This document shows positions 10,498 through 60,576 of a stretch of 64,000 nt of DNA, in pieces. The notes under the pieces were generated by a model, which had not been told where the DNA came from, made no database searches, and was given only the letters and a program-made list of their open reading frames with translations. Each line of letters begins with the position of its first letter. Within the stretch, counting starts at the first letter, position 1. Both the position numbers and the translations under genes were made by a program. Source of the DNA: an uncultured Bacteroidales bacterium (GTDB taxonomy: Bacteria > Bacteroidota > Bacteroidia > Bacteroidales > CAIWKO01); NCBI GenBank assembly GCA_964599365.1, contig CAZRFL010000007.1:12909-76908 (forward strand), given 5' to 3'.

Positions 10498-11796
10498 TTA
10501 AACCTTCTTCGGCGCCAAAAACTTATTGAAAAGCAACAATCCAATAATAGTCACCACACCAATCAAACTAAAGATAAACCAAAGGGCAGATGGGTTTTTC
10601 AGGGTGTCGACAAAGTACACATACAGATTGGCTCCCAAAACACCTCCAATGCCGCTGCCTATCACTCCGTAAAGGAAAGAATAGCCCAGGTAAAGGGCTT
10701 TTTTGTCAGGAGGAGCAATCAGCCCTACATAGGAAATAAATTTCGGATGTGCGGTCATTTCGCCGATGGAAAAGATGATCATACCGGCAATAAATATCCA
10801 GGCATTGGGCGAGATGGCTAAAATGGCCATGCCTATGGTTCCCATGGTAATCCCCACAATCATAGTGGGTAGTGCCTTGGTATTTTTCACAATGCTCGAA
10901 ACCAAAATCTGCAGCAGGATAATCGTTCCGGCATTGATAACGGTAACGTGTTCGGCCTCGAATTTCCATTGAGGATTATCCATAAACAAACCCAGGAAGC
11001 CATTAACGAAATTGTCGACAGGCGTCATGTCCATGTATTCGCTCAGATACCACAGCACCGTGTCGAACATCTGGAAATACAAAATCCAGAAACCGGAGTA
11101 GATCAAAATCATCACAATAAAACGCCAGTCTTTTATCACCAGTATCATTTCCTTGGCAATGGTAATAAGGCTTTTTGAGTTGGCAGGCCTGACAGGTTCC
11201 TTATAAACAAATAAATTGAGCAGCAGCAACGAACCTGTAACTACTGATGCCATGATGAATATATAGGACCATGAATAACTTTTCAGCCAGGGTATCAGTA
11301 TCAATGGGAATATAAAAGCTCCGAGGTTAATGGCCCAATAAAAAATTCCGAAACCGAGGGTAGAATTACTTTCGTTTGTCGAACGGGCAATGGTTCCCGA
11401 AATTATAGGTTTGAAGAATCCCGCACCGGTAACCATCAGCAGAAGACTGGCAAAAACCAAAGGATATTCAGTGAACTGACTCGTGAAGAAATACCCGGCA
11501 CTCATCACAATAAAAGCAAAGATCAATGTTTTTTTGTATCCGTAGCGGTCGGCCACGGCCCCCGATATAATGGGGAGTAAATATAAAAGGGGAGTAATAG
11601 TGCTTTTGATCACGCCTACGCTTTCTTTCGAAAATCCCAATCCTCCGTCTTTGGTGCTCAGCACCAGATAGACCGAGAGTACCGACATCACTCCGTAGTA
11701 TGAGCCGCGTTCGAAGAATTCCATGGTGATCACCGTCCAGAAATTGCGGGGAAAGCTTCTAAAGCCGGATCGTTTTACAGAGGTTTGTTCCATCAT
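10498..11796 (-). CDS. MFS transporter, POT/PTR2-like peptide permease
   Basis: 432 aa, ~12 TM. The N-terminal FWTVITMEFFERGSYYGV matches the PTR2 ExxERxxYYG signature. Confidence 0.75.
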   Translation of the reverse strand: MMEQTSVKRSGFRSFPRNFWTVITMEFFERGSYYGVMSVLSVYLVLSTKDGGLGFSKESVGVIKSTITPLLYLLPIISGAVADRYGYKKTLIFAFIVMSAGYFFTSQFTEYPLVFASLLLMVTGAGFFKPIISGTIARSTNESNSTLGFGIFYWAINLGAFIFPLILIPWLKSYSWSYIFIMASVVTGSLLLLNLFVYKEPVRPANSKSLITIAKEMILVIKDWRFIVMILIYSGFWILYFQMFDTVLWYLSEYMDMTPVDNFVNGFLGLFMDNPQWKFEAEHVTVINAGTIILLQILVSSIVKNTKALPTMIVGITMGTIGMAILAISPNAWIFIAGMIIFSIGEMTAHPKFISYVGLIAPPDKKALYLGYSFLYGVIGSGIGGVLGANLYVYFVDTLKNPSALWFIFSLIGVVTIIGLLLFNKFLAPKKV

Positions 11797-18712: not shown

Positions 18713-18969
18713 GGGTTACAGAGTTTTTACCAAATCAAATTTTCATTAATCCGTGAAAACCATTTCTTGACTTGTGCTGGTTAAGAAATTACCTTTACAC
18801 TCACATAGAAAATTTATAATACCAAAAGTAAATTTTTTTTAATTGCGTTCTATTAGTTGTAAAATAATTTTATAGTTCTTTCACATATTACAAGTTTTCC
18901 GCTTGCAGCAAAAGGCAATAGGCGATTGGTAAAATAAACGGAGGGCACTGCAGAATTTATTACAGAGTC

Positions 18970-19242
18970 TGCAGCCTGCGTTATGCATCCTGCACCACGC
19001 GTTTTTCGTTCTGCATTATGCGTTATTCATTCTGCACCATGCGTTATTCATTTTGCACTATGCGTTATTCATTCTGCACTATGCGTTATTCGTTCTGCAT
19101 CATGCGTTATTCATTCTGCACCATGCGTTATTCGTTTTGCACCATGCGTTATTCATTCTGCATCACGCGTTATTTGTTCTGCACCATGCGTTATTTGTTC
19201 TGCACCATGCGTTATTCATTTTGCACCTTACGTTTGCATTTT
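18970..19242. repeat. Tandem array, 13 units of exactly 21 bp (consensus tgcaccatgcgttattcattc)
   Basis: Units start at 18970+21k (k=0..12) with no indels. The ten central units differ only by transitions. It lies between the divergent XRE gene (ATG at 18712) and the orphan gene (ATG at 19346). Confidence 0.95.
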
Positions 19243-19345: not shown

Positions 19346-20248
19346 ATGAATTATAAAGTTATTGTACGCGACAAAGCCCAAATGAGGGGCGATAAGTTTC
19401 TCACTGATAATAATACGGCATTGAGTGCCATTACCTCCTATGCACCTATTAAAGCCAAATGGGATGCCGGATTTTTGCTTACGCAAAAAGCCAAACAGAA
19501 AATGTATGAGCAATACGGGTATATCACCTTTGACAAGAAGTTGGTAAGGGCCGAAATGATCAATATTTTTCTGCCCCAACTAGCCAAGGGCAGTAGTCAG
19601 ATGTTTGTGGCCGACAGGCTTGATTTGGCTAAGGCTCTGGATATAGCTCCTACATTTTTAACGCATTGTGGGGGTGAAGCCTGTATAGGTCGTGCCACCG
19701 ATTTGCTGAATATAGTTACCACCAATTCGGGTGTAATTACTTCGATTACCGTCACTGACAGAGCCGATATGACCGATGCACTGAAAGCTTTTAAGGACAT
19801 AAACGGTACTCCACAATCTCTCATTAAAAAGAGAAAAGCCGAAGGCACCGAAATTATGATTCCTTTGCTCAACGATCTGGATGTTACCAAACATTTTTTG
19901 ACCAAGCATATTTCGTCGCATAATCCCGATTTGTTGGCTGACTGGATTGCCATCATCAAGGTGGGTAAGTCGTCGTCGGCACGACATCTGTCGCTGGAGA
20001 TAAAATTGGTTGACGATGTAACGGGGGTGGCTGTGGTGAAGGGAGTAGTTACTTTGAGCAAAGGTATAGAAAAACATAAAAAACTCAGCAGCACAAAAGG
20101 TTTTGCACGCTTCTATAGTGTAATGGTGGGCACCTGGTCGTTTACGGTGGATAGCGAATTATATGAAAGCGCTAACATGTCGAATGTTGGAATTGATAAT
20201 ACAAAAACGGTTAGATTTACCATTAAACTGAAAAAGAAAAACTATTAG
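19346..20248 (+). CDS. Orphan protein: ~215-aa helical N-domain plus a C-terminal carboxypeptidase-regulatory-like (prealbumin-fold) domain
   Basis: 300 aa. The C-terminal IKLVDDVTGVAVVKGVVTLSKG...STKGFARFYSVMVGTWSFTVDSELYES...VRFTIKL fits the CarboxypepD_reg pattern by eye. The N-domain is not recognised. Confidence 0.6.
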   Translation: MNYKVIVRDKAQMRGDKFLTDNNTALSAITSYAPIKAKWDAGFLLTQKAKQKMYEQYGYITFDKKLVRAEMINIFLPQLAKGSSQMFVADRLDLAKALDIAPTFLTHCGGEACIGRATDLLNIVTTNSGVITSITVTDRADMTDALKAFKDINGTPQSLIKKRKAEGTEIMIPLLNDLDVTKHFLTKHISSHNPDLLADWIAIIKVGKSSSARHLSLEIKLVDDVTGVAVVKGVVTLSKGIEKHKKLSSTKGFARFYSVMVGTWSFTVDSELYESANMSNVGIDNTKTVRFTIKLKKKNY

Positions 20249-31830: not shown

Positions 31831-32415
31831 TTAGTTATCGGCGTATCTTATGATGTAATAGGTCCAGTCGGGTTTGATGAGCTTTTGTTTCACCAGGGTA
31901 ACATTTCTGTCGCCGGCATAAAAGTTTCCTGCAGGGTCGCTTCCTTTTTGAAAAATAATGTAATGCTCGGTGATGCTGTCGCCGCATCGGGCATAAAACA
32001 CGGGATATTTGACCGTGGAATCGGAACGGAAGGAGAAGTTGGTGATGAGCACATCGTTGTTGGTATAGTAAGAATGGGGCGAGAGTTTGTCGATGAGTTC
32101 CAGTGTGGCCGATTCGCTTTGCGGAAGGTATAGTTTCAGCAGATGTTTGGTGGCCGGATAGAAATAAGTTTTTCGCAACGAATCGGGATCGGAGCAGGCC
32201 CGGCCGCTATGGGCGCTGCCTATGTTCTGACAACAGGAGTCGGCGAGCAAAACGATATTTCGTAAGAACATAGTATTGATCTGCTCCAGATCATTAATAT
32301 GAGACAGGGGCAATTCGCGGAAGGAGTTTTTGGTTTGAGTGTCGCAATCGTGGTTGCAGGAAACCATGATAAACAGGGAAAAGATAAGAGTGGCGTACAT
32401 AATGGTCTTGTTCAT
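31831..32415 (-). CDS. Hypothetical lipoprotein
   Basis: The track ORF extends to 32445. The internal start [22 protein letters not shown] gives a clean lipobox. No family recognised. Confidence 0.45.
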
Positions 32416-32888
32416 TGCTTTGTTGCTGAAGAATCTTTGCAGCATAAAACTACATAATTATGGGGAGATAGAGGAGGATTTTTTTCAATTCATAGACACA
32501 AAAGAAGATTCACCGAGGAGACGCTGAGGACGCAGAGAAATCGCCACAATCCAGTAGCCTTAAGCCATGAGTCGTGCCGCACTTCGGTCTTCGGACTTCG
32601 CATTCTGAGCGAAGTCGAAAGGCAGACTTCCTTAATCTACTTAATAAACCCAATCAACTAATTACTGGTTTGCCACGCGCCACTCTTACATTTCATCTAA
32701 GGAGTTCTCTTTGTGGGTCATGGGTTGGAATATTTTACGGCAAATTATTGTTTTTGATGGGGTTGTTGTTAGGTTGAGGCATCGCAAAAAGTTACTTGAT
32801 CCAATTGGAGAATTCATACAAGGCAAATTGTCCTTACTTTGCCTCATGTGACTGTTCAGACGAAATAAATTACAGTTACTGCATGCCA

Positions 32889-33083
32889 ATTGAATGTTTA
32901 TACGACATCCAACACTCTTACTTTATCCTATACGTATGTTCATGCGATACCAAATACTCTTACTTTATGTCATTTGAAAGTTCATAGATGGTAAAACACT
33001 GTTTTCGGATATCGTATGAAAGCACTGATAGGGTAAAACACTCTTACTTTATGTCGTATGAATGTCCGTACGACATAAATTCC
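32889..33083. repeat. Tandem repeat, ~4.7 units of exactly 42 bp
   Basis: The core a(a/c)actcttactttat recurs with 'act' anchors at 32914, 32956, 32998 and 33040 (spacing 42/42/42). The flanking gtatgaaNg... parts are also related. It sits in a 1-kb divergent intergenic region. Confidence 0.85.
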
Positions 33084-33404
33084 TTTTTATTGAGTAGTTC
33101 AACAATAAATAATTCAGGTTATTAACAAAACACAATTAAATTTATGAATAGAAGATGGTATTATTTGATCGAACAGTGTCTTTCCACAACTGAAAACAGT
33201 TCCGAAAAGGTTTATAAGATTATCTCGTTAACATGAAATGCGTTTGAAAAAGTGCAAAAACCATAATCCTGGTGATGCCAATTATGATAGAATTTCTTTC
33301 TGAAACTCTGTGTATCCTCTGTGTCCGCCTGTTGGTGGACTGTGTAATGGCTCCTCCTAACAGACTAAAAGCCTAATAGTCTAAAAGTCTTCAAATTTTT
33401 TTCC

Positions 33405-33456: not shown

Positions 33457-34497
33457 ATGATGAAACTGTCTTTCCTGAAAAGAACCTCTGCTTTGTTAGC
33501 CCTTATTCTGCTGCTATCCGTTACGAATGTCAGCAGCCAGTCCAGTACCGATGAGCCTGTGTTGGGCTTCGGATTTTTAAACAAGATCGTTGGATTGTGG
33601 AACGGCAAGGTTGTTACCTCTACTTCTTCGGGTAGTTTCGACAAATGGTATGTCGATTTCCGCCCGGTTTCCCCCTCGCAAGTGTCTCAATATTCTATGC
33701 TGGATTCCAATACGGTGAATATTACTAGCTATTTCGTGGTGAAATACAATAACAAACTGGCCATAGCCCAGCGTACCGAAGGTTGTTTCCAGGACAAATG
33801 CTGCGTTACCTACGAAATAATGGATTCGGTGAACGAAGCTTCGGGTTATTATCGTTTTGTAGATTTTGTAGGCGGAAAGAAAAGGGCTTCCACCATTTAT
33901 CATTTCTCGAAAGAGGGTTTTGTTCAGGAAGTATGGACCAACAAGTTTAATCAATCCCCTGTGTTGAAACTGCATTCGAAGTTCGAACCTGCATTGACCA
34001 GCCGCGAGGCCGCCCGCGATGCCATCAATGAATTTAAGTTTCCTCAGCCCAAAGCAGTGAACGACTTTACAGGCATCTTTGGAAGCATGAAAGAAAGCAT
34101 CTATTTCAATCTCGACGAGGATCCTTATAATGGCGCTTCCCAGCCTCCCATGGGAACGGTTACGGTGAATATCACCATAGACCCTTCACTGAAAACCAGC
34201 AAAACCGATGAGTTATGCCTGTTGCTGACTACCGAACCCCTTTTCGACGGACTGAAATACGTTCCCGAACGCTTGAATTACCTTTCGAAGTACGTGTATT
34301 TGGGGGTTGGAACGAAATCGTATACACTTAAAAACGTGCATCCCGGAAAGTATTATTTGTATTCATACGACGATATCAACGGGGATAAGATGCACAAAAA
34401 GGGCGACTATATGAGTTCCAGCCTGAACAGTAGTTTTACTGTGGGTGCCAACGGCAAGGTCAGCATTGATACTAAGATTGATTTTGTGATTCCTTAA
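33457..34497 (+). CDS. Hypothetical secreted protein
   Basis: 346 aa. Signal peptide ...VTNVSSQ. The C-terminal YTLKNVHPGKYYLYSYDDINGD... suggests a beta-sandwich. No family recognised. Confidence 0.5.
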   Translation: MMKLSFLKRTSALLALILLLSVTNVSSQSSTDEPVLGFGFLNKIVGLWNGKVVTSTSSGSFDKWYVDFRPVSPSQVSQYSMLDSNTVNITSYFVVKYNNKLAIAQRTEGCFQDKCCVTYEIMDSVNEASGYYRFVDFVGGKKRASTIYHFSKEGFVQEVWTNKFNQSPVLKLHSKFEPALTSREAARDAINEFKFPQPKAVNDFTGIFGSMKESIYFNLDEDPYNGASQPPMGTVTVNITIDPSLKTSKTDELCLLLTTEPLFDGLKYVPERLNYLSKYVYLGVGTKSYTLKNVHPGKYYLYSYDDINGDKMHKKGDYMSSSLNSSFTVGANGKVSIDTKIDFVIP

Positions 34498-36176: not shown

Positions 36177-37058
36177 TCACAAAGGTACACTTACCCTGAA
36201 TTCCTGAAGGGATTGATTGGTGTTGGTCTTAAAGAATTTGCTGAAGTGCGAAGGGTCGTCGAAACCCAGGTCGTAGCCTATTTCTTTGGCACTTTTGGGG
36301 GTGAAGACTATCATGCGTTTGGCTTCGAGTATAAGGCGCTGCTGAATGTAGTCCTTGGCCGATACGTCTATGGACGTTCGTATCACCTCGTTCAGATAGT
36401 TGGGCGTCACGAAGAGGGCATCGGCATATTCTTTCACCTGGTGCCATTCATGAAAATGTTCTTCCACCAATGTCTTGAATTTCTTCACCAGACTACGGCC
36501 CACTTCCACCGATTGGGTGTTTTCGGCAGGCGACAGCGAGCAATGCCCGTTGCATTCAATCAGGAAAAGTTTCAGGTAAGCGCCTATGGTCTCCAGATAC
36601 ATGTCGTTGCGGGTTTCGAAGGCCGAGAGCATTTGCCCGGCAAAGAGCTGCAGCGAGGTCGACATTTGTTCGTTGAGTGGCAGGGGAGGTGTGTCGTCGC
36701 TGGAGCGGAAGAGCTTGAGGTTGGAGATGAAATCGTCGCGAATGCTGTTCTTTTCGAGAAATTCGGGAGTGAAGAGTATTACATAGCCCGTGGGATCGGC
36801 ATCGGTTATCACCTGATGTACCTGTTCGGGACTGACGAAAAAGATATGGTTGGGCTGCAGCGCATATTCTCTGAAATCGATGATGTGGCGGCCCGTGGCG
36901 GTGATCGACCATATCACCGAGTAGTAATCGTGGCGGTGAGGTGGGTCGGCTATGCCCCCCGACAGGCGGTTGAGTTCTTCCATGGTGATGATGACGAAAG
37001 GCATGGAGACTCCCTTAAAGAGAAGAGGTAGGGTGTTGATCTTTTTAGAAGGGGGCAT
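36177..37058 (-). CDS. AraC-family transcriptional regulator
   Basis: 293 aa. N-terminal cupin-like PHRHDYYSV. C-terminal double HTH: VKEYADALFVTPNYLNEVI...AKEIGYDLGFDDPSHFSKFFK. Confidence 0.88.
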   Translation of the reverse strand: MPPSKKINTLPLLFKGVSMPFVIITMEELNRLSGGIADPPHRHDYYSVIWSITATGRHIIDFREYALQPNHIFFVSPEQVHQVITDADPTGYVILFTPEFLEKNSIRDDFISNLKLFRSSDDTPPLPLNEQMSTSLQLFAGQMLSAFETRNDMYLETIGAYLKLFLIECNGHCSLSPAENTQSVEVGRSLVKKFKTLVEEHFHEWHQVKEYADALFVTPNYLNEVIRTSIDVSAKDYIQQRLILEAKRMIVFTPKSAKEIGYDLGFDDPSHFSKFFKTNTNQSLQEFRVSVPL

Positions 37059-37252: not shown

Positions 37253-37600
37253 TTAGTACATCAAGTGTTTTTTACTGGTATTTTTCCAACCTGCGTCACT
37301 TTTATATTCCGAAAAATAGATCACCAGGTCCGCATCGCTCTTATAATCGCAGAAGTAAATAGTTACCTGAGCATCGCTCTTATAGTTGCAGAAATACCAC
37401 AAACCGTCATTTCCTGAAGCATCGCTCGAATAGGAACATTTGTAAACCACCAGGTCGGCATCGCTTTTATAGTTTGCCACGTAAACTTTTACTTTGGCGT
37501 CACTTTTATAATCACAAGAATATACCTTTTGAGCATTAGCGGCTGAGATACCCACCAACAGAGCAATCATAAACACACTGACTTTTAATAGATTTTTCAT
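37253..37600 (-). CDS. Small secreted repeat protein (DUF6150-like), six ~13-aa [DN]YKSDA-x-[LV]-x-[IV]Y units
   Basis: 115 aa with a signal peptide. Contains DYKSDAKVKVYVA / NYKSDADLVVYKC / SYSSDASGNDGLWYFC / NYKSDAQVTIYFC / DYKSDADLVIYFS / EYKSDAGW. Confidence 0.6.
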   Translation of the reverse strand: MKNLLKVSVFMIALLVGISAANAQKVYSCDYKSDAKVKVYVANYKSDADLVVYKCSYSSDASGNDGLWYFCNYKSDAQVTIYFCDYKSDADLVIYFSEYKSDAGWKNTSKKHLMY

Positions 37601-44043: not shown

Positions 44044-45306
44044 ATGATTAAGAAAACTATTCTCATTATATTGATGTCCATTCCTTTTCTGGCGTTGGCA
44101 CAACAGGAAGAACAAACCCCTGCTTTTGGTATCAGATTTTCGGGCTATGTCAAAAACGACATCTTTTTCGATTCGCGCAAAACCTGTAATGCACTCGAAG
44201 GTGCTTTTTTGCTTTATCCCGACAATGTTAAGTTCGACAATGACAATGTGGATATCAATGCGCATACCCGACTGACTTTTCTGGCCATTCAATCGCGTTT
44301 GCATGGCGATATTTTTGGCCCCGACGCTTTTGGAGCCAAAACTTCAGGTGTGATCGAAGCTGAATTTACCGGCACACAGATTGGCAATGCCAATGGTTTC
44401 CGTTTGCGCCACGCTTATGGAAAATTGTCGTGGGAGTCTACCGACCTCCTCATCGGACAGACCTGGCATCCCATGTTTGTCGAAGGTTGTTTTCCTGAGA
44501 TCATGGCAATGAATACCGGATCCCCGTTTCAGCCTTTTTCGCGCAATCCTCAGATTCGTGTAACCCAAAAACTCAAAGATTTTAAGTTTATGCTTACCCT
44601 GGCTTCACAGTTGGATTTTACCAGCTGGGGCGGCACCGATGGCATACGCAACGCTACCCTGCCCGATATGAATATCCGCATACAATACCAGCATTTTAAC
44701 GAAGACAAAACCCGCGAACTGTTTTTCGGAGCGGGCATTGATTATAAAGTGGTGGTTCCACGCCTGGTTACCGACAGCAATTATGCCACCAATGCCGCTC
44801 TCAATACCTATGCCGCTATGGCTTTTTTCAAACACCGCAGCAAATATATCACCTTCAAAATGGAAGGAGTCTACGGACAGAACCTCTACGATCAGGTGAT
44901 GTTGGGAGGTTATGCTTACAAATATACCACCGACAGTACCACTATTGCACGGGGCGATTTCGATTATACTTCGCTCAACAATGTTTCGGCCTGGGCAGAT
45001 ATTGCCACCAATGGCAGCAAGATACAGTTTGGTATTTATGGTGGATATACCAAGAATTTGGGCTCAAGATTCAATATTCTTAACTGGACTCAGGGCTCAA
45101 AGTTCTTTTCGAGAGGCTGGAATATCGACTATGTTTACCGCGTTTCGCCCCGCATAGTTTTCATCTCTGGTAAAATGAAAATGGGCGTTGAGGGCGATTA
45201 CACCGTGGCCGGATATGGCGATTCAGTCAACAGCCTGGGCGATGTGCAAAATGTAAAACCTGTAAGCAACATCAGGTTGATGTACTCTTTCTTCTATTAT
45301 TTTTAG
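44044..45306 (+). CDS. Outer-membrane porin-like beta-barrel protein
   Basis: 420 aa. Signal peptide ...LALAQQ. Alternating beta-strand pattern. Aromatic C-terminus ...MYSFFYYF. Confidence 0.6.
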   Translation: MIKKTILIILMSIPFLALAQQEEQTPAFGIRFSGYVKNDIFFDSRKTCNALEGAFLLYPDNVKFDNDNVDINAHTRLTFLAIQSRLHGDIFGPDAFGAKTSGVIEAEFTGTQIGNANGFRLRHAYGKLSWESTDLLIGQTWHPMFVEGCFPEIMAMNTGSPFQPFSRNPQIRVTQKLKDFKFMLTLASQLDFTSWGGTDGIRNATLPDMNIRIQYQHFNEDKTRELFFGAGIDYKVVVPRLVTDSNYATNAALNTYAAMAFFKHRSKYITFKMEGVYGQNLYDQVMLGGYAYKYTTDSTTIARGDFDYTSLNNVSAWADIATNGSKIQFGIYGGYTKNLGSRFNILNWTQGSKFFSRGWNIDYVYRVSPRIVFISGKMKMGVEGDYTVAGYGDSVNSLGDVQNVKPVSNIRLMYSFFYYF

Positions 45307-45788
45307 GCTATTAGGCTGTTAGGCTAATAGGCTTTTAGGAAGTGGGCTGCGAGGAATCATGCAAACAAGGTGTTCTTTGCGGTCAGAATTTTTTTAACCA
45401 CAAAGCTCACCAGGAAGTCACCATGGTCACAAAGTAATTCTGCCTCCATCTACTACATTTGGCCAATTAAATCGCCACAGATTCGCAGATTTTATTCTAC
45501 TAAGCAATAATATTCGCTTACGCAGAGCTAAATTTGATTATAATTAACGCTGAGCGTAAATTTAAAAATTTCATTTTTAAATTTTACGAAAGTAATCTGC
45601 GAACGGAGGGAAGCGACCTCACGAAGTCCTATGAAATAAAATAATATTCTGAGTAATCTGCGGCTATGAATTTCAGTTATCCATTAGGGTGATATTAAGC
45701 TCACTTAATCGAAATACTGAAATCTGGCTCCGGTCTTCCGTCTTCTGAATTCTTACTTCTGAATTCTGACTTCTGAATTCTGACTTCC
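45304..45788. repeat. Intergenic block of short-period stutters and inverted 'word' repeats
   Basis: taggctNN 8-mer x 5 (45304-45340, beginning at the porin stop codon). cgcagatt/aatctgcg words in inverted orientation (45478-45490 versus 45593-45600 and 45653-45661). 14-bp unit acttctgaattctg x 3.5 (45738-45788), abutting the HD gene stop. Confidence 0.75.
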
Positions 45789-46432
45789 TAAAAATTCCAT
45801 TCTTCGAAGAAATTCTTCAGAAACTCTTCCATAAACTCATGTCGCTTTTCGGCCAATTCCCTGGCGGCTGAGGTATGCAGCCTGTCTTTGAGCAAGAGCA
45901 ATTTTTCATAGAAATGATTGATGGTATGCGAGACTTTGGTCTTATAAGCCTCGAAATCGTCATGCATCACAGGCAATACTTCGGGATCGTAGATTTCCCT
46001 GTTTTTTGAGCCACCATAAGCAAAAGTCCGGGCAATGCCAATAGCCCCCAGGGCATCCAGCCTGTCGGCATCCTGCACCACGCTGGCTTCTATCGAATCA
46101 GGCGTGGTGTCTTCGCCCGCACCTTTATACGAAACCTGAGCGATGATATGCAGCACCTTTTCTCTGGTTTCTGCCTCCACATCCAGGCTTTTCAGCCAGT
46201 TTTCGGCATGGGCCGACCCGGCAACGTTAAATTTCCAGTCGTCCACATCGTGCAATAAGGCGGCAAGCCTAACTAAAAACAGATCGGCTTTCTCTTTTTC
46301 GGCCAGATACAATGCAAGCTTTTCCACACGATAGATGTGCCACCAATCGTGCCCCGTCGATTCGCCCGCGGAACCCGATTTTACGAATGCTATGGTTTGC
46401 GCTATCATGTTTTGTTGAGTTTCGGTGAGCAT
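45788..46432 (-). CDS. HD-domain phosphohydrolase
   Basis: 214 aa. Contains HDWWHIYRV...AALLHDVDDWK...VQDADRLDALGAIGIAR. Confidence 0.85.
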   Translation of the reverse strand: MLTETQQNMIAQTIAFVKSGSAGESTGHDWWHIYRVEKLALYLAEKEKADLFLVRLAALLHDVDDWKFNVAGSAHAENWLKSLDVEAETREKVLHIIAQVSYKGAGEDTTPDSIEASVVQDADRLDALGAIGIARTFAYGGSKNREIYDPEVLPVMHDDFEAYKTKVSHTINHFYEKLLLLKDRLHTSAARELAEKRHEFMEEFLKNFFEEWNF

Positions 46433-46674
46433 GGTCTGGGTTTATGAAGGGGTTAGGTCTGCAAATTTAGGAAATAATGGGCAGGCGATAACAACAAATT
46501 AGAACAGGGTTGTCTTGAGATATGCGGGGGTTGAAATTTAATAGAATGATTCCGGTTTATGTTGGCGAAGATTTCTTATAATAGGTTGTAATATAAGATA
46601 TTGTGTTGAAATTATTGTGTTTGACAGAATGTAAAATATGGGAAAACGCCTCATTCCGGCATCGTGTTTTATAG

Positions 46675-46968
46675 CTCTGCCTTCAGGCGGCGCGCCTCCG
46701 CCCGAAGGCGGCAGGGCTCTGCCCTCAGCGGGAATACATCCCTCATCAGGCAGCGTGATTCCATTTTCAGGCAGCAGGGCTCCCTCCTCAGGCGGAAGAA
46801 CGCTTCCTTTGAACGACACAACTCTATCCTCAGGAAGAGTCCTGCCATCTCATGTAAGCAAGTTTCCCTCCTCAGGCAGTTCAGCTCCATACTTTGGCAG
46901 TATGCCTCTGCTAGAAGGGGGAATGTTTTTTCCCGAAGCTTTCCCTCCTCAAATTCAGTCTTACTGTA
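46675..46968. repeat. Degenerate tandem array, 14 units of exactly 21 bp (consensus ~ctcYnYcctcAGGcRG-n5)
   Basis: The (c/a)agg-type anchor occurs at 46684, 46705, 46726, 46747, 46768, 46789, 46831, 46873, 46894, 46915 and 46936, with degenerate versions at 46810, 46852 and 46957. All sit within 1 nt of a 21-bp grid. The region is open in several frames on both strands (track ORFs 46638..46976, 46664..46969, 46669..47028, 46538..46819). Confidence 0.85.
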
Positions 46969-47160
46969 AATCCTAAGGTCGTTTAAGAAAACATTAATTA
47001 AAGCGCAGGCAACTTCCCTTTCTTTCATATATTTTATTAACGTTCCTCTCTAGATATTGGTTCCCATGTTGGCTAAGGCTCCAGCCAATTTGCAATTGGT
47101 AAATTGATTTTTCATGGAAAAAAGACATCCCTGTCCTAAGTACCTGATCCCAAACAAAGA

Positions 47161-47194
47161 AAGGCTTGCCCCATTTTGGGGGCAAGCCTTTTTC
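47161..47194 (-). terminator. Strong terminator hairpin downstream of the TlpA-like gene
   Basis: 12-bp stem: aaggcttgcccc (47161-47172) pairs with ggggcaagcctt (47179-47190), 6-nt loop. T-rich tracts on both sides, so it is possibly bidirectional. It lies 24 nt after the stop at 47214. Confidence 0.75.
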
Positions 47195-47213
47195 AATAGC
47201 TTTTATCGCCGTC

Positions 47214-48326
47214 CTACTTCAACAGCTCATTCACCTTCTTATACAGTTCTTCTCCCCTCAGGTTTTTGGCAATAATGCGGCCTTCTTTATCTATCAATAC
47301 GGTATAAGGTATTGCGCTAACATTATACAAAGGCACCACCATCGATTGCCAGAATTTGACATCGCTCACCTGTATCCATGGAAGTTTTTTCGATTTGATG
47401 GCTCCCAGCCAGGCATCGCGGGTTTTGTCCAGCGAAACTCCCATTATCTCCAAACCTTTCGGATGAAAGTCGTTGTATAATTTAATCACATTGGGCATTT
47501 CTTTCATACAGGGTCCGCACCAGGCAGCCCAGAAATCGATGAGCACATATTTGCCCTTGAACGAACTCAGGCTGACATTGGTCCCGCTGGTATCGGGCAG
47601 GGTAAAGTCGGGAGCCATAGACCCTATGCGGGTTTTTTTGGCCGCACGTATCTTCGAGTGCAGGTTCATCACAAAATAATTCGATGGGTATTTTGCAAAA
47701 AGCACGGTATCCATTTTCTCGTAAGTTTCCAGGTTGTCTTCCACCGGAAATGCATCGGGCAGGAAAAGATTGGCCAGCGATGAGGTATTGTTGAGCATAA
47801 AACTATTGAGGGCATTCTTTTTCGAAGCTTCCATTTTTTCGTATTCGGCTGTGTATATTTTTATCAGCGAATCGCGTTTTGGATGGGCCATTGCCTGGCT
47901 CCATAAATTGTTGAGGCTATCTTGTTTGAATTTCGTTTCGTCAATAATTCGTTGGTTCTTAAAAACATAATTGGTTTCCTCGCTGCCTTTGATCTTCAAT
48001 TCTTTCATCAGTTCTTTGGCGTCGGCGCTAATTTCCACCTCTTCGCCGGGTTTCAGAATCATCATAATGAAGTTGTTTTTATCAAATTCCAGCTTATAAA
48101 AATCCGCACCCTTAATATTCTGTTTGATGGAAAATTCGCCTGAGGCCGAAATAGTAGTCTTGCCAAGCTCAGCCATATCTTGTCCAATTCTGATCAGTGT
48201 AGCTGTCGTGAAAGTATTGTTACTTATCTTTCCACTTATACTTACCTGGGGGTTTATCTGCGCATAAACCGAAATAATCGGAAGCAACAAAAGCAATGTA
48301 AAAATTGTGTGTTTAAGTTTTTTCAT
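47214..48326 (-). CDS. TlpA-family thiol:disulfide oxidoreductase (thioredoxin fold) with an N-terminal beta-domain
   Basis: Contains WAAWCGPC (CxxC). The signal peptide starts at MKKLKHTIFTLLLLLPIISVYAQ (ATG at 48326; the track start is 48371). Confidence 0.85.
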   Translation of the reverse strand: MKKLKHTIFTLLLLLPIISVYAQINPQVSISGKISNNTFTTATLIRIGQDMAELGKTTISASGEFSIKQNIKGADFYKLEFDKNNFIMMILKPGEEVEISADAKELMKELKIKGSEETNYVFKNQRIIDETKFKQDSLNNLWSQAMAHPKRDSLIKIYTAEYEKMEASKKNALNSFMLNNTSSLANLFLPDAFPVEDNLETYEKMDTVLFAKYPSNYFVMNLHSKIRAAKKTRIGSMAPDFTLPDTSGTNVSLSSFKGKYVLIDFWAAWCGPCMKEMPNVIKLYNDFHPKGLEIMGVSLDKTRDAWLGAIKSKKLPWIQVSDVKFWQSMVVPLYNVSAIPYTVLIDKEGRIIAKNLRGEELYKKVNELLK

Positions 48327-59535: not shown

Positions 59536-59766
59536 TAGGCACGCGTCGCAAAACAGAAGGCTCGCGTTATTAAATTATATTATCGCATCGCCATAGAATA
59601 TATCCGCGTCGTTATTTACTATAAACGCGTTTAATTAAAAAATATCAGCGCATGAAAAATATAATATCGCTTAAACATGATGCATATCAGCAAACGAATT
59701 ATCGTGTTTCGCGTCCATAAAGATCAAGGTCGCGGTGGCGTGAAATATATTCGCGCCATTATTTTC
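59536..59766. repeat. AT-rich phased array: 11 units of exactly 21 bp, each carrying a (C/A)GC(G/A/T) core (8 x CGCG)
   Basis: Core first bases are at 59542, 59563, 59584, 59605, 59626, 59647, 59668, 59689, 59710, 59731 and 59752, all exactly 21 bp apart. No ORF of 60 aa or more is reported here. The array ends 97 nt upstream of the ATG at 59863. Confidence 0.85.
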
Positions 59767-59862
59767 CCGCAATTTAATCATTATTTTTTTTAATCTTTCC
59801 CCCCTTTTTTTTAAAATAATTATTAATTTTACTCCCATAAAACCCGAAATGCTGATAGTTTA

Positions 59863-60576
59863 ATGGAAGAAATCAAAATTACCAACAAATTCAAGATGGG
59901 CGTTCCCGAACTGATAGGCTTAGGCAACAGATGCCTATCATTATACGAAAAAGATTTTTCAGTATTGGAAACCTATGGAATAAATGAAACCTTTAAAGAG
60001 GCCGTCGAAACTAAAATTGAAGAATTAAGCAACATAGGGTCCGATCCGGAATATCAGGGTGAGGCTATGGATTTTTGTGAAATCAAAGACAAAAATGCTG
60101 ATGATGTAAGGGTGATGATTCGCACCATAATGTCGCGGGTCGAAAATGTATTTAAACCCGGCAGTGGTAAATGGAAACGTTTCGACACCAAGGGATTGAG
60201 TCAAATGAACGATCATCTGTTGGCCCGATGCGGATTCAGAGTAGTGCGCATCTGCAACGTTTATCTGTCGCAACTAACTCCAAAAGGAATTACGCCGGCA
60301 ATGCTAACCGAATTGAATGATTTGACAACACAATTCTACAAAAGTTGGGACGACTTTCATGATGCCGAATGCAATCGTGTTTGCATGACAACCGAACGCC
60401 TGACCCTTGGCAACGAACTGTACGATTTGATTACCGAAATGTACGGATATGGCAAAGACTATTGGTACACCCGCAACGAAGCCAGATACAAGAATTATAT
60501 CATCTACGATACCCCCAGTGGCAAACCCGACAAGGAAGAAGTTACACCCGAAGATCAAGCCCCTCAGCCGGAATAG
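59863..60576 (+). CDS. Orphan helical protein with a P/E/D-rich tail
   Basis: 237 aa. No motif recognised. By eye, the segment GITPAMLTELNDLTTQFYKSWDDFHDAECNRVCMTTERLTLGNELYDLI weakly resembles ITVTDRADMTDALKAFKDINGTPQSLIKKRKAEGTEIMIPLLNDLDVT of the 19346 protein. Confidence 0.55.
   Translation: MEEIKITNKFKMGVPELIGLGNRCLSLYEKDFSVLETYGINETFKEAVETKIEELSNIGSDPEYQGEAMDFCEIKDKNADDVRVMIRTIMSRVENVFKPGSGKWKRFDTKGLSQMNDHLLARCGFRVVRICNVYLSQLTPKGITPAMLTELNDLTTQFYKSWDDFHDAECNRVCMTTERLTLGNELYDLITEMYGYGKDYWYTRNEARYKNYIIYDTPSGKPDKEEVTPEDQAPQPE

Follow-up and report, generated by a model that had tools for sequence, protein, structure and literature searches.

The spacer that separates tlpA from an HD-domain phosphohydrolase gene (HD) in an uncultured Bacteroidales bacterium contains a real tandem array of 21-bp units, designated array A, which has kept its phase without an indel and is one of a class of arrays with mutually unrelated units and a fixed period of 21 or 42 bp. 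We tentatively favour, with somewhat less than even confidence, its interpretation as a non-coding, helically phased element that would act as a multi-site protein-binding platform modulating or insulating the HD promoter. The analysis covered a stretch of 64,000 nucleotides, referred to as the window, together with further loci designated by their L or P numbers. The features of the tlpA-HD locus, in window coordinates, were as follows.

46675-46926, no strand assigned: core of array A, 12 units of 21 bp, delimited by autocorrelation, a leave-one-out phase test and per-column information content.
46927-46968: units 13 and 14 of the first-pass annotation, indistinguishable from the flanks (−6.1 and −14.2 bits, with the best scores at other shifts).
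45788-46432, minus strand: HD-domain phosphohydrolase gene, downstream of array A (Pfam HD, E = 3.9e-12).
47214-48326, minus strand: tlpA, a TlpA/AhpC-type thiol-disulfide oxidoreductase gene (370-aa form), upstream of array A (Pfam AhpC-TSA and Redoxin; P0002 is 100% identical).
46462-46469, minus strand: −7 promoter box of the HD gene, TAAATTTG (TAnnTTTG), found by motif scan.
47160-47191, minus strand: intrinsic-terminator hairpin with a 13-bp stem, conserved in L001 and L086.

Autocorrelation over 46675-46968 returned self-identities of 0.465, 0.433, 0.437 and 0.471 at lags of 21, 42, 63 and 84, with other lags at approximately 0.25, and the value at lag 21 corresponded to z = 8.1 in comparison to 2000 shuffles (0.255 ± 0.026). 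Tandem Repeats Finder detected only two short pieces of the array, which is expected when units average 44% identity. The mean pairwise identity was 0.44 over the 14 units originally claimed and approximately 0.5 among the 12 supported ones. The phase of each unit was evaluated with a leave-one-out position weight matrix at shifts from −10 to +10, the 99th percentile of random 21-mers (4.1 bits) serving as the yardstick. For units 1-6, 8 and 10-12, the highest score was the one at shift 0 (9-20 bits). Units 7 and 9 were decayed (−2.1 and −0.9 bits), and the later units stayed on the 21-bp grid. Based on these scores, array A consists of 12 units and is indel-free over 252 bp. The first-pass annotation had described 14 units on an indel-free grid, each with a [CA]AGG anchor; the tandem array and the grid held, the latter over 12 units, while the unit count had to be reduced and the literal anchor was present in 8 of the 14 claimed units. 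Columns 2-3 and 11-12, which it had singled out as nearly invariant, were indeed the best conserved. The plus-strand consensus was CTCcatCcTcAGGcaGcatgc. Information peaked at columns 2-3 (TC), 11-12 (AG) and 16 (G) and was near zero at columns 5, 14 and 19-21, the conserved and non-conserved columns giving a site-plus-spacer layout inside each unit. The spacer including array A was present on four further contigs of the same species (four samples, three from JGI and one from Logan) at equal length and with 1 mismatch in 781 bp, i.e., effectively as one clone; array A is therefore not an assembly artefact. All its copies derive from one near-clonal population, and the host is known from metagenome assemblies only.

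Array A lies between the terminator that closes the uppS-bamA-ompH-ompH-tlpA gene row and the HD promoter. The HD box, which precedes the HD start codon by 30 bp and is 206 bp away from the edge of array A, was the single canonical Bacteroidetes −7 box in the 781-bp spacer, and the HD promoter segment was 96% conserved in L001 and L086. On contigs P0013 and P0016, from relatives with 65% and 59% TlpA identity, tlpA and HD are separated by 7 and 3 bp, the compact arrangement being seen at L092 11110-11113 and on the P0013 contig as opposed to 46433-47213 in the window. Since the two genes are 3-7 bp apart in distant relatives, the 781-bp spacer is a clade-specific insertion. Judged from these gene orders, the ancestral state is a tight tlpA-HD operon, which was split in this clade when a stretch with a terminator, an array and a new promoter was inserted. 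In the closest relative (L001, L086; HD 94% and TlpA 84% identical), the terminator and promoter segments were 86-96% conserved, and the middle of the spacer contained a different 21-bp array, AGATTTACGCTGCGTTTATCT in approximately 8 copies. The unit of this array was the best match of array A in profile comparison, at r = 0.36 and P = 0.17 against a column-permuted null. In L088 (TlpA 70% identical), a degenerate 21-bp array of approximately 24 units, L088a (11144-11640), directly follows tlpA; it has an ATACA anchor and one 1-bp phase slip and lies between convergent genes, the downstream synteny being different. The window, L086 and L088 thus share a 21-bp array after tlpA, each with another unit sequence.

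Further arrays of this kind were identified in the window and in L088.

18968-19240, plus strand: array B, 13 units of TCTGCACCATGCGTTATTCAT with 81% mean identity.
32826-33077, no strand assigned: array D, period 42, composed of two alternating 21-bp units and situated between divergently oriented genes of unknown function; all six frames contain stops.
59537-59767, plus strand: array C, 11 units with a CGCGTC anchor every 21 bp and stops in all six frames.
L088 18684-19060: array L088b, 18 degenerate 21-bp units, 370 bp upstream of a paralogous pair of unknown genes.

Seven mutually unrelated unit families with a period of 21 or 42 were distinguished (A, B, C with L095 and L096, D, L086, L088a and L088b), and every long (at least 8 units) non-coding array seen in the DNA of this clade had a period of 21 or 42 bp. 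Tandem Repeats Finder detected no period-21 array in 80 more distantly related HD loci (approximately 628 kb), and an autocorrelation scan of the same loci gave weak signals only. When all profiles were compared with each other against a column-permuted null, significant likeness was limited to C/L095/L096 and L088a1/L088a2; array A matched nothing, and no motif common to all families was found. An anchor, YnGC[CG]T, apparently shared by the reverse strand of A, B, C and L086 when inspected by eye, was rejected by the same comparison. The array spacers had no flanking sequence in common, which argues that the arrays arose in place. A mobile element was also discounted, as no shared flanks and no other copies of the A unit were present in the window or in the fetched loci. 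Arrays C, D and L088a1 had stops in all six frames, and the phase of the arrays is therefore not a reading frame. The genes adjacent to these arrays gave no matches in Pfam, NCBIfam, PHROGs or PDB sequences. Array D is flanked by 31831-32445 (minus strand) and 33457-34497 (plus strand), and array B ends 106 bp before gene 19346-20248. The last, mutated unit of array B forms a canonical −7 box, TACGTTTG, at 19229, 110 nt before this gene, and array B may have supplied its promoter. The gene itself belongs to no Pfam family and is represented by 126 clusters at 50% identity; its confident AlphaFold model (pLDDT 94) combines a helical N-terminal domain, for which the PDB gave no match, with a transthyretin-like beta-sandwich at the C-terminus.

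Array C was the conserved member of the class. Its counterparts, at L095 14-223 and L096 393-623, are located upstream of orthologs (64-66% identity) of gene 59863-60576. The profiles of the three arrays correlated at 0.57-0.70 (P ≤ 0.001), and their cross-matrix scores were +3.6 to +7.9 bits per unit in register versus −11 to −16 out of register. In the C-type arrays, 110-113 nt separate the first base of the final CGCG anchor from the ATG, and this base is approximately 72 nt upstream of a conserved TA[AC]TTTTA −7 box. The gene family of 59863-60576 is lineage-restricted (5 protein clusters among 5.8 billion proteins), and its AlphaFold model is of low confidence (pLDDT 38.7). The conservation of array C in three species shows that at least one member of the class has long been constrained in its anchor, its phase and its distance to the promoter, outside the transcript and at the level of DNA. 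Together, the period kept by seven unrelated families, the six-frame stops and the conservation of array C point to constraint on the phasing of DNA.

With regard to mechanism, each 21-bp unit corresponds to two turns of B-DNA, and the conserved bases of every unit therefore share one helix face over approximately 250 bp. A DNA-binding protein is predicted to occupy the units head to tail, every two turns, and to insulate the HD promoter, 200 bp downstream, or modulate its activity. A distance of 9-10 bp separates columns 2-3 from columns 11-12, which would suit contacts in adjacent major grooves. The array might have originated by slippage amplification of a two-copy operator, and would then represent an expanded version of the two-site, 21-bp-apart operators of AraC/HTCS-type and LytTR-type regulators. 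In Bacteroides, the motifs of HTCS (AraC-type) regulators are direct repeats at an average distance of 21 bp, which were interpreted as setting the monomers two helix turns apart on one side of the DNA (PMC3878776). LytTR sites are imperfect direct repeats of 9-10 bp with an 11-12-bp spacer, which gives a 21-bp period (PMC2766830). Array A resembles the HTCS operators in its direct repeats with approximately 21 bp between centres, held in array A to an exact 21-bp grid; the HTCS operators, however, comprise two sites, are conserved across orthologous promoters and have a cognate regulator encoded nearby. Conservation of the motif upstream of orthologous genes was observed for array C, and not for array A in comparison to L086. 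The sites of LytTR regulators (AgrA/ComE/SilA) share the 21-bp period with array A but occur in two copies, and array A, unlike them, has no LytTR core of the GTT type; none of the window genes scanned was recognised as LytTR. No AraC or LytTR operator of 10-14 copies is known to us. Tandem direct repeats of 17-22 bp, present in many copies, helically phased and cooperatively bound by one protein, are characteristic of plasmid iterons and type II partition centromeres (e.g., the 22-bp iterons of R6K and the 20-bp repeats of pSK41 parC). Unlike iterons, array A is found in a chromosomal housekeeping context (bamA, ompH, tlpA, tyrS), and 64 kb contain several 21-bp arrays whose units are unrelated. 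No rep or par genes were found, the neighbours of array A being tlpA, HD, ompH and an unknown secreted protein in a chromosomal gene order. By analogy, array A would work like a direct-repeat operator with additional sites or like an iteron array on the chromosome, but copy number, context or conservation sets it apart from each of these families. Literature searches yielded no account of phased 21-bp arrays, either in Bacteroidota or in bacterial promoters.

Several observations weigh against a binding platform. The copy number is 12, not two; no regulator gene adjoins array A and no binding protein was identified. An operator recognised by its sequence would not be expected to give way to an unrelated unit at an orthologous gene, as array A does in L086, and the 206 bp to the −7 box is far for a classical activator site. 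L088a, placed between convergent genes, has no downstream promoter, and at least two units of array A are decayed. The sole transcription factor noticed among the window genes scanned was an AraC-family regulator (cupin and helix-turn-helix; 36177-37058, minus strand), recognised by sequence motif and a PHROG transcriptional-regulator hit; nothing ties it to the arrays.

The main rival explanation, which we consider unlikely although it accounts for several of these points, is a neutral or selfish minisatellite generated by slippage in a dispensable spacer and now decaying. The 21-bp period would then go back to a lineage mutational bias or to seeding by two-copy operators already in place, rather than to a present function. 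Fast turnover at the locus, with unrelated units in the window, L086 and L088a, is consistent with such an origin, as are the decayed units 7, 9, 13 and 14, the phase slip in L088a between its convergent genes, the origin of the arrays in place, and the similarity between the units of array A, which does not drop with distance, as in an old, non-homogenised array. Bacterial VNTRs and minisatellites are likewise intergenic head-to-tail repeats with rapid turnover between close relatives. Their periods, however, vary widely within a genome, whereas the period here is uniform over seven unrelated families. Array C, moreover, has been conserved over a long evolutionary distance, its anchor, phase and promoter distance remaining intact while the orthologs downstream fell to 64-66% identity. 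At a unit identity of approximately 50%, roughly 100 substitutions are implied over the 252 bp of array A, and 3-5 indels would be expected if our own estimate of the indel-to-substitution ratio (0.03-0.05) is applied; none was seen.

It is also conceivable, if rather improbable, that the two-turn period itself, irrespective of the unit sequence, is the property selected or generated, either through a shape-reading architectural protein or through lineage-specific amplification of 21-bp operator seeds. If a period-reading protein were involved, the arrays would be a bacterial counterpart of nucleosome-positioning arrays; if seeds were amplified, 21-bp operators would grow to arrays of 10-25 copies and then become upstream elements. 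Under either version, promoter-upstream phased arrays would be an undescribed general feature of genome architecture. A sequence-independent architectural element in the narrower sense, in which the two-turn repeat bends one way and aids wrapping or looping on a nucleoid protein, the period alone being selected, was judged improbable to a greater degree. The tlpA-HD locus, where three species share a period and not a sequence, is in line with it, as is the lack of a cross-family motif. The predicted static curvature was, however, inconsistent between arrays: in a wedge model, B, C and L095 were straighter than the controls, and D (strongly, at a ratio of 0.55), L086 and L096 were curved. Array A was not predicted to be curved, its end-to-end to contour ratio being 0.923 versus 0.945 ± 0.034 for shuffles and 0.908 ± 0.066 for genomic segments. 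The CGCGTC anchor retained by array C also points to sequence-specific recognition.

A further possibility, a structured non-coding RNA or part of a 3'-UTR produced either through tlpA read-through or by a promoter that escaped recognition, appears very unlikely. Both strands of array A folded better than shuffles (z = −2.3 for the plus and −3.2 for the minus strand), and the T-tract of the terminator is weak (CTTTGTTTGG), which makes read-through conceivable. The folding is, however, explained by the partly palindromic unit (CCTCAGG, GCC-N4-GGC). Rfam gave no hit at the gathering score and weak, chance-level hits at E ≤ 10, the HD box was the sole promoter box in the spacer, and the C-type arrays lie upstream of their own promoter, outside the mRNA.

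The remaining alternative is a small heptad-repeat protein. Over 46675-46968, stop counts were [4,0,0] for the plus and [0,11,4] for the minus frames, so that three of the six frames were open, and all three corresponding ORFs terminate at the array edges.

46669-47028, minus strand: 119-aa ORF with L-[RK]-x-E heptads, called by gene finders on related contigs; codon score −0.106, read as spurious.
46638-46976, plus strand: 112-aa ORF with an ATG start and [LP]-P-S-[SG]-G heptads; codon score −0.127, read as spurious.
46664-46969, plus strand: 101-aa ORF with a GTG start and S-[ALI]-[FLI]-R heptads; codon score −0.236, read as spurious.

The openness in several frames on both strands that had been reported from the sequence was confirmed, with two plus frames and one minus frame, the frame at 46638-46976 being an addition to the first-pass annotation. 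The heptads were also as it described, with S-[ALI]-[FLI]-R on the plus strand and Leu in 10 of the 14 heptad rows of the minus-strand ORF. Like small heptad-repeat (coiled-coil-like) proteins, array A has seven codons per 21-nt unit and heptad translations. A codon-usage log-odds model trained on 38 window genes placed the three frames between −0.11 and −0.24 bits per codon, in comparison to 0.27 ± 0.09 for real genes (minimum 0.013) and within the range of shadow ORFs (−0.09 ± 0.18). AGG accounted for 8 of the 17 Arg codons of the 101-aa ORF versus 14% of those in the window genes. The 119-aa ORF gave self-hits only among 5.8 billion proteins, none of the three frames matched Pfam, and a motif scan found no Bacteroidetes-type promoter box upstream of any of them. 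Within-column shuffles seldom stayed open (P < 0.0002), rejecting that null; a position-specific first-order (dinucleotide) model, in contrast, reproduced the open frames (P = 0.15-0.59), which were therefore not taken as evidence of coding selection. No period of 3 was present in unit conservation (information by codon phase 0.68/0.60/0.76), and variation was not concentrated at third codon positions. Gene callers also placed a 56-aa ORF with a heptad-like repeat on translation inside L088a (11218-11388) and a 61-aa ORF inside the L096 array (455-640). The translations of array A contain frequent Pro and Cys, unlike heptad-repeat proteins. The original inference that phase keeping despite divergence reflects constraint was upheld; of the two causes then offered, helical phasing of a DNA element was favoured, given the six-frame stops in sister arrays and one array conserved across species, and reading-frame maintenance was left without a homolog, codon bias or period 3. 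With the nearest relative carrying an unrelated array instead, a heptad-repeat protein is barely credible, and the heptad "proteins" are most likely by-products of the 21-bp period.

Other repeats were noted as well. Short tandem 8- or 16-bp repeats of TTAGGCT[AG]/AGCCTAA occur at 45303-45339, 33356-33390 and L001 1110-1164 (intergenic); at 45303 and in L001 they immediately follow a stop codon, at 33356 they lie upstream of gene 33457-34497, and they may constitute a separate repeat family. Directly downstream of the HD stop codon, CTTCTGAATTCTGA is repeated in 3.3 copies with a 7-bp sub-period (45742-45787). The gene at 37253-37600 (minus strand) encodes a secreted 115-aa protein with 13-residue YKSDA repeats; with its 39-bp period, it is a real coding repeat, in contrast to the 21-bp arrays. 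In L092 and L094, a 115-aa gene of equal period (39 bp) adjoins purS. Restriction-site logic was rejected, as CCTNAGG was not avoided in the rest of the window (8 sites seen versus 10.7 expected). A CRISPR array, with repeats of 23-50 bp and unique spacers, was rejected as well, since the units of array A are contiguous and have no repeat-spacer structure. A metagenome scan with a back-translated, clade-specific TlpA peptide returned 12 chance loci, none with tlpA, and a scan of viral contigs for three TCAGGC anchors 21 bp apart matched at least 120 contigs, the pattern being too unspecific.

For annotation, these results imply that gene finders turn such arrays into spurious heptad-like hypothetical proteins (119 aa here, 56 aa in L088 and 61 aa in L096), and that orphan ORFs with a 21-nt periodicity should be distrusted in Bacteroidota. 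The tlpA-HD locus also documents how an operon was split, with terminator, array and new promoter inserted between its genes. Array A is itself modest, and the class-level pattern of unrelated units, a fixed two-turn period and one promoter-conserved member matters more. If the arrays are functional, as in the binding-platform interpretation that we tentatively favour, this lineage would rely on long, helically phased arrays of operators, with 10-25 copies in place of the two sites of other bacteria, and would offer a natural system for studying cooperative binding along one helix face and the birth of regulatory DNA by amplification.
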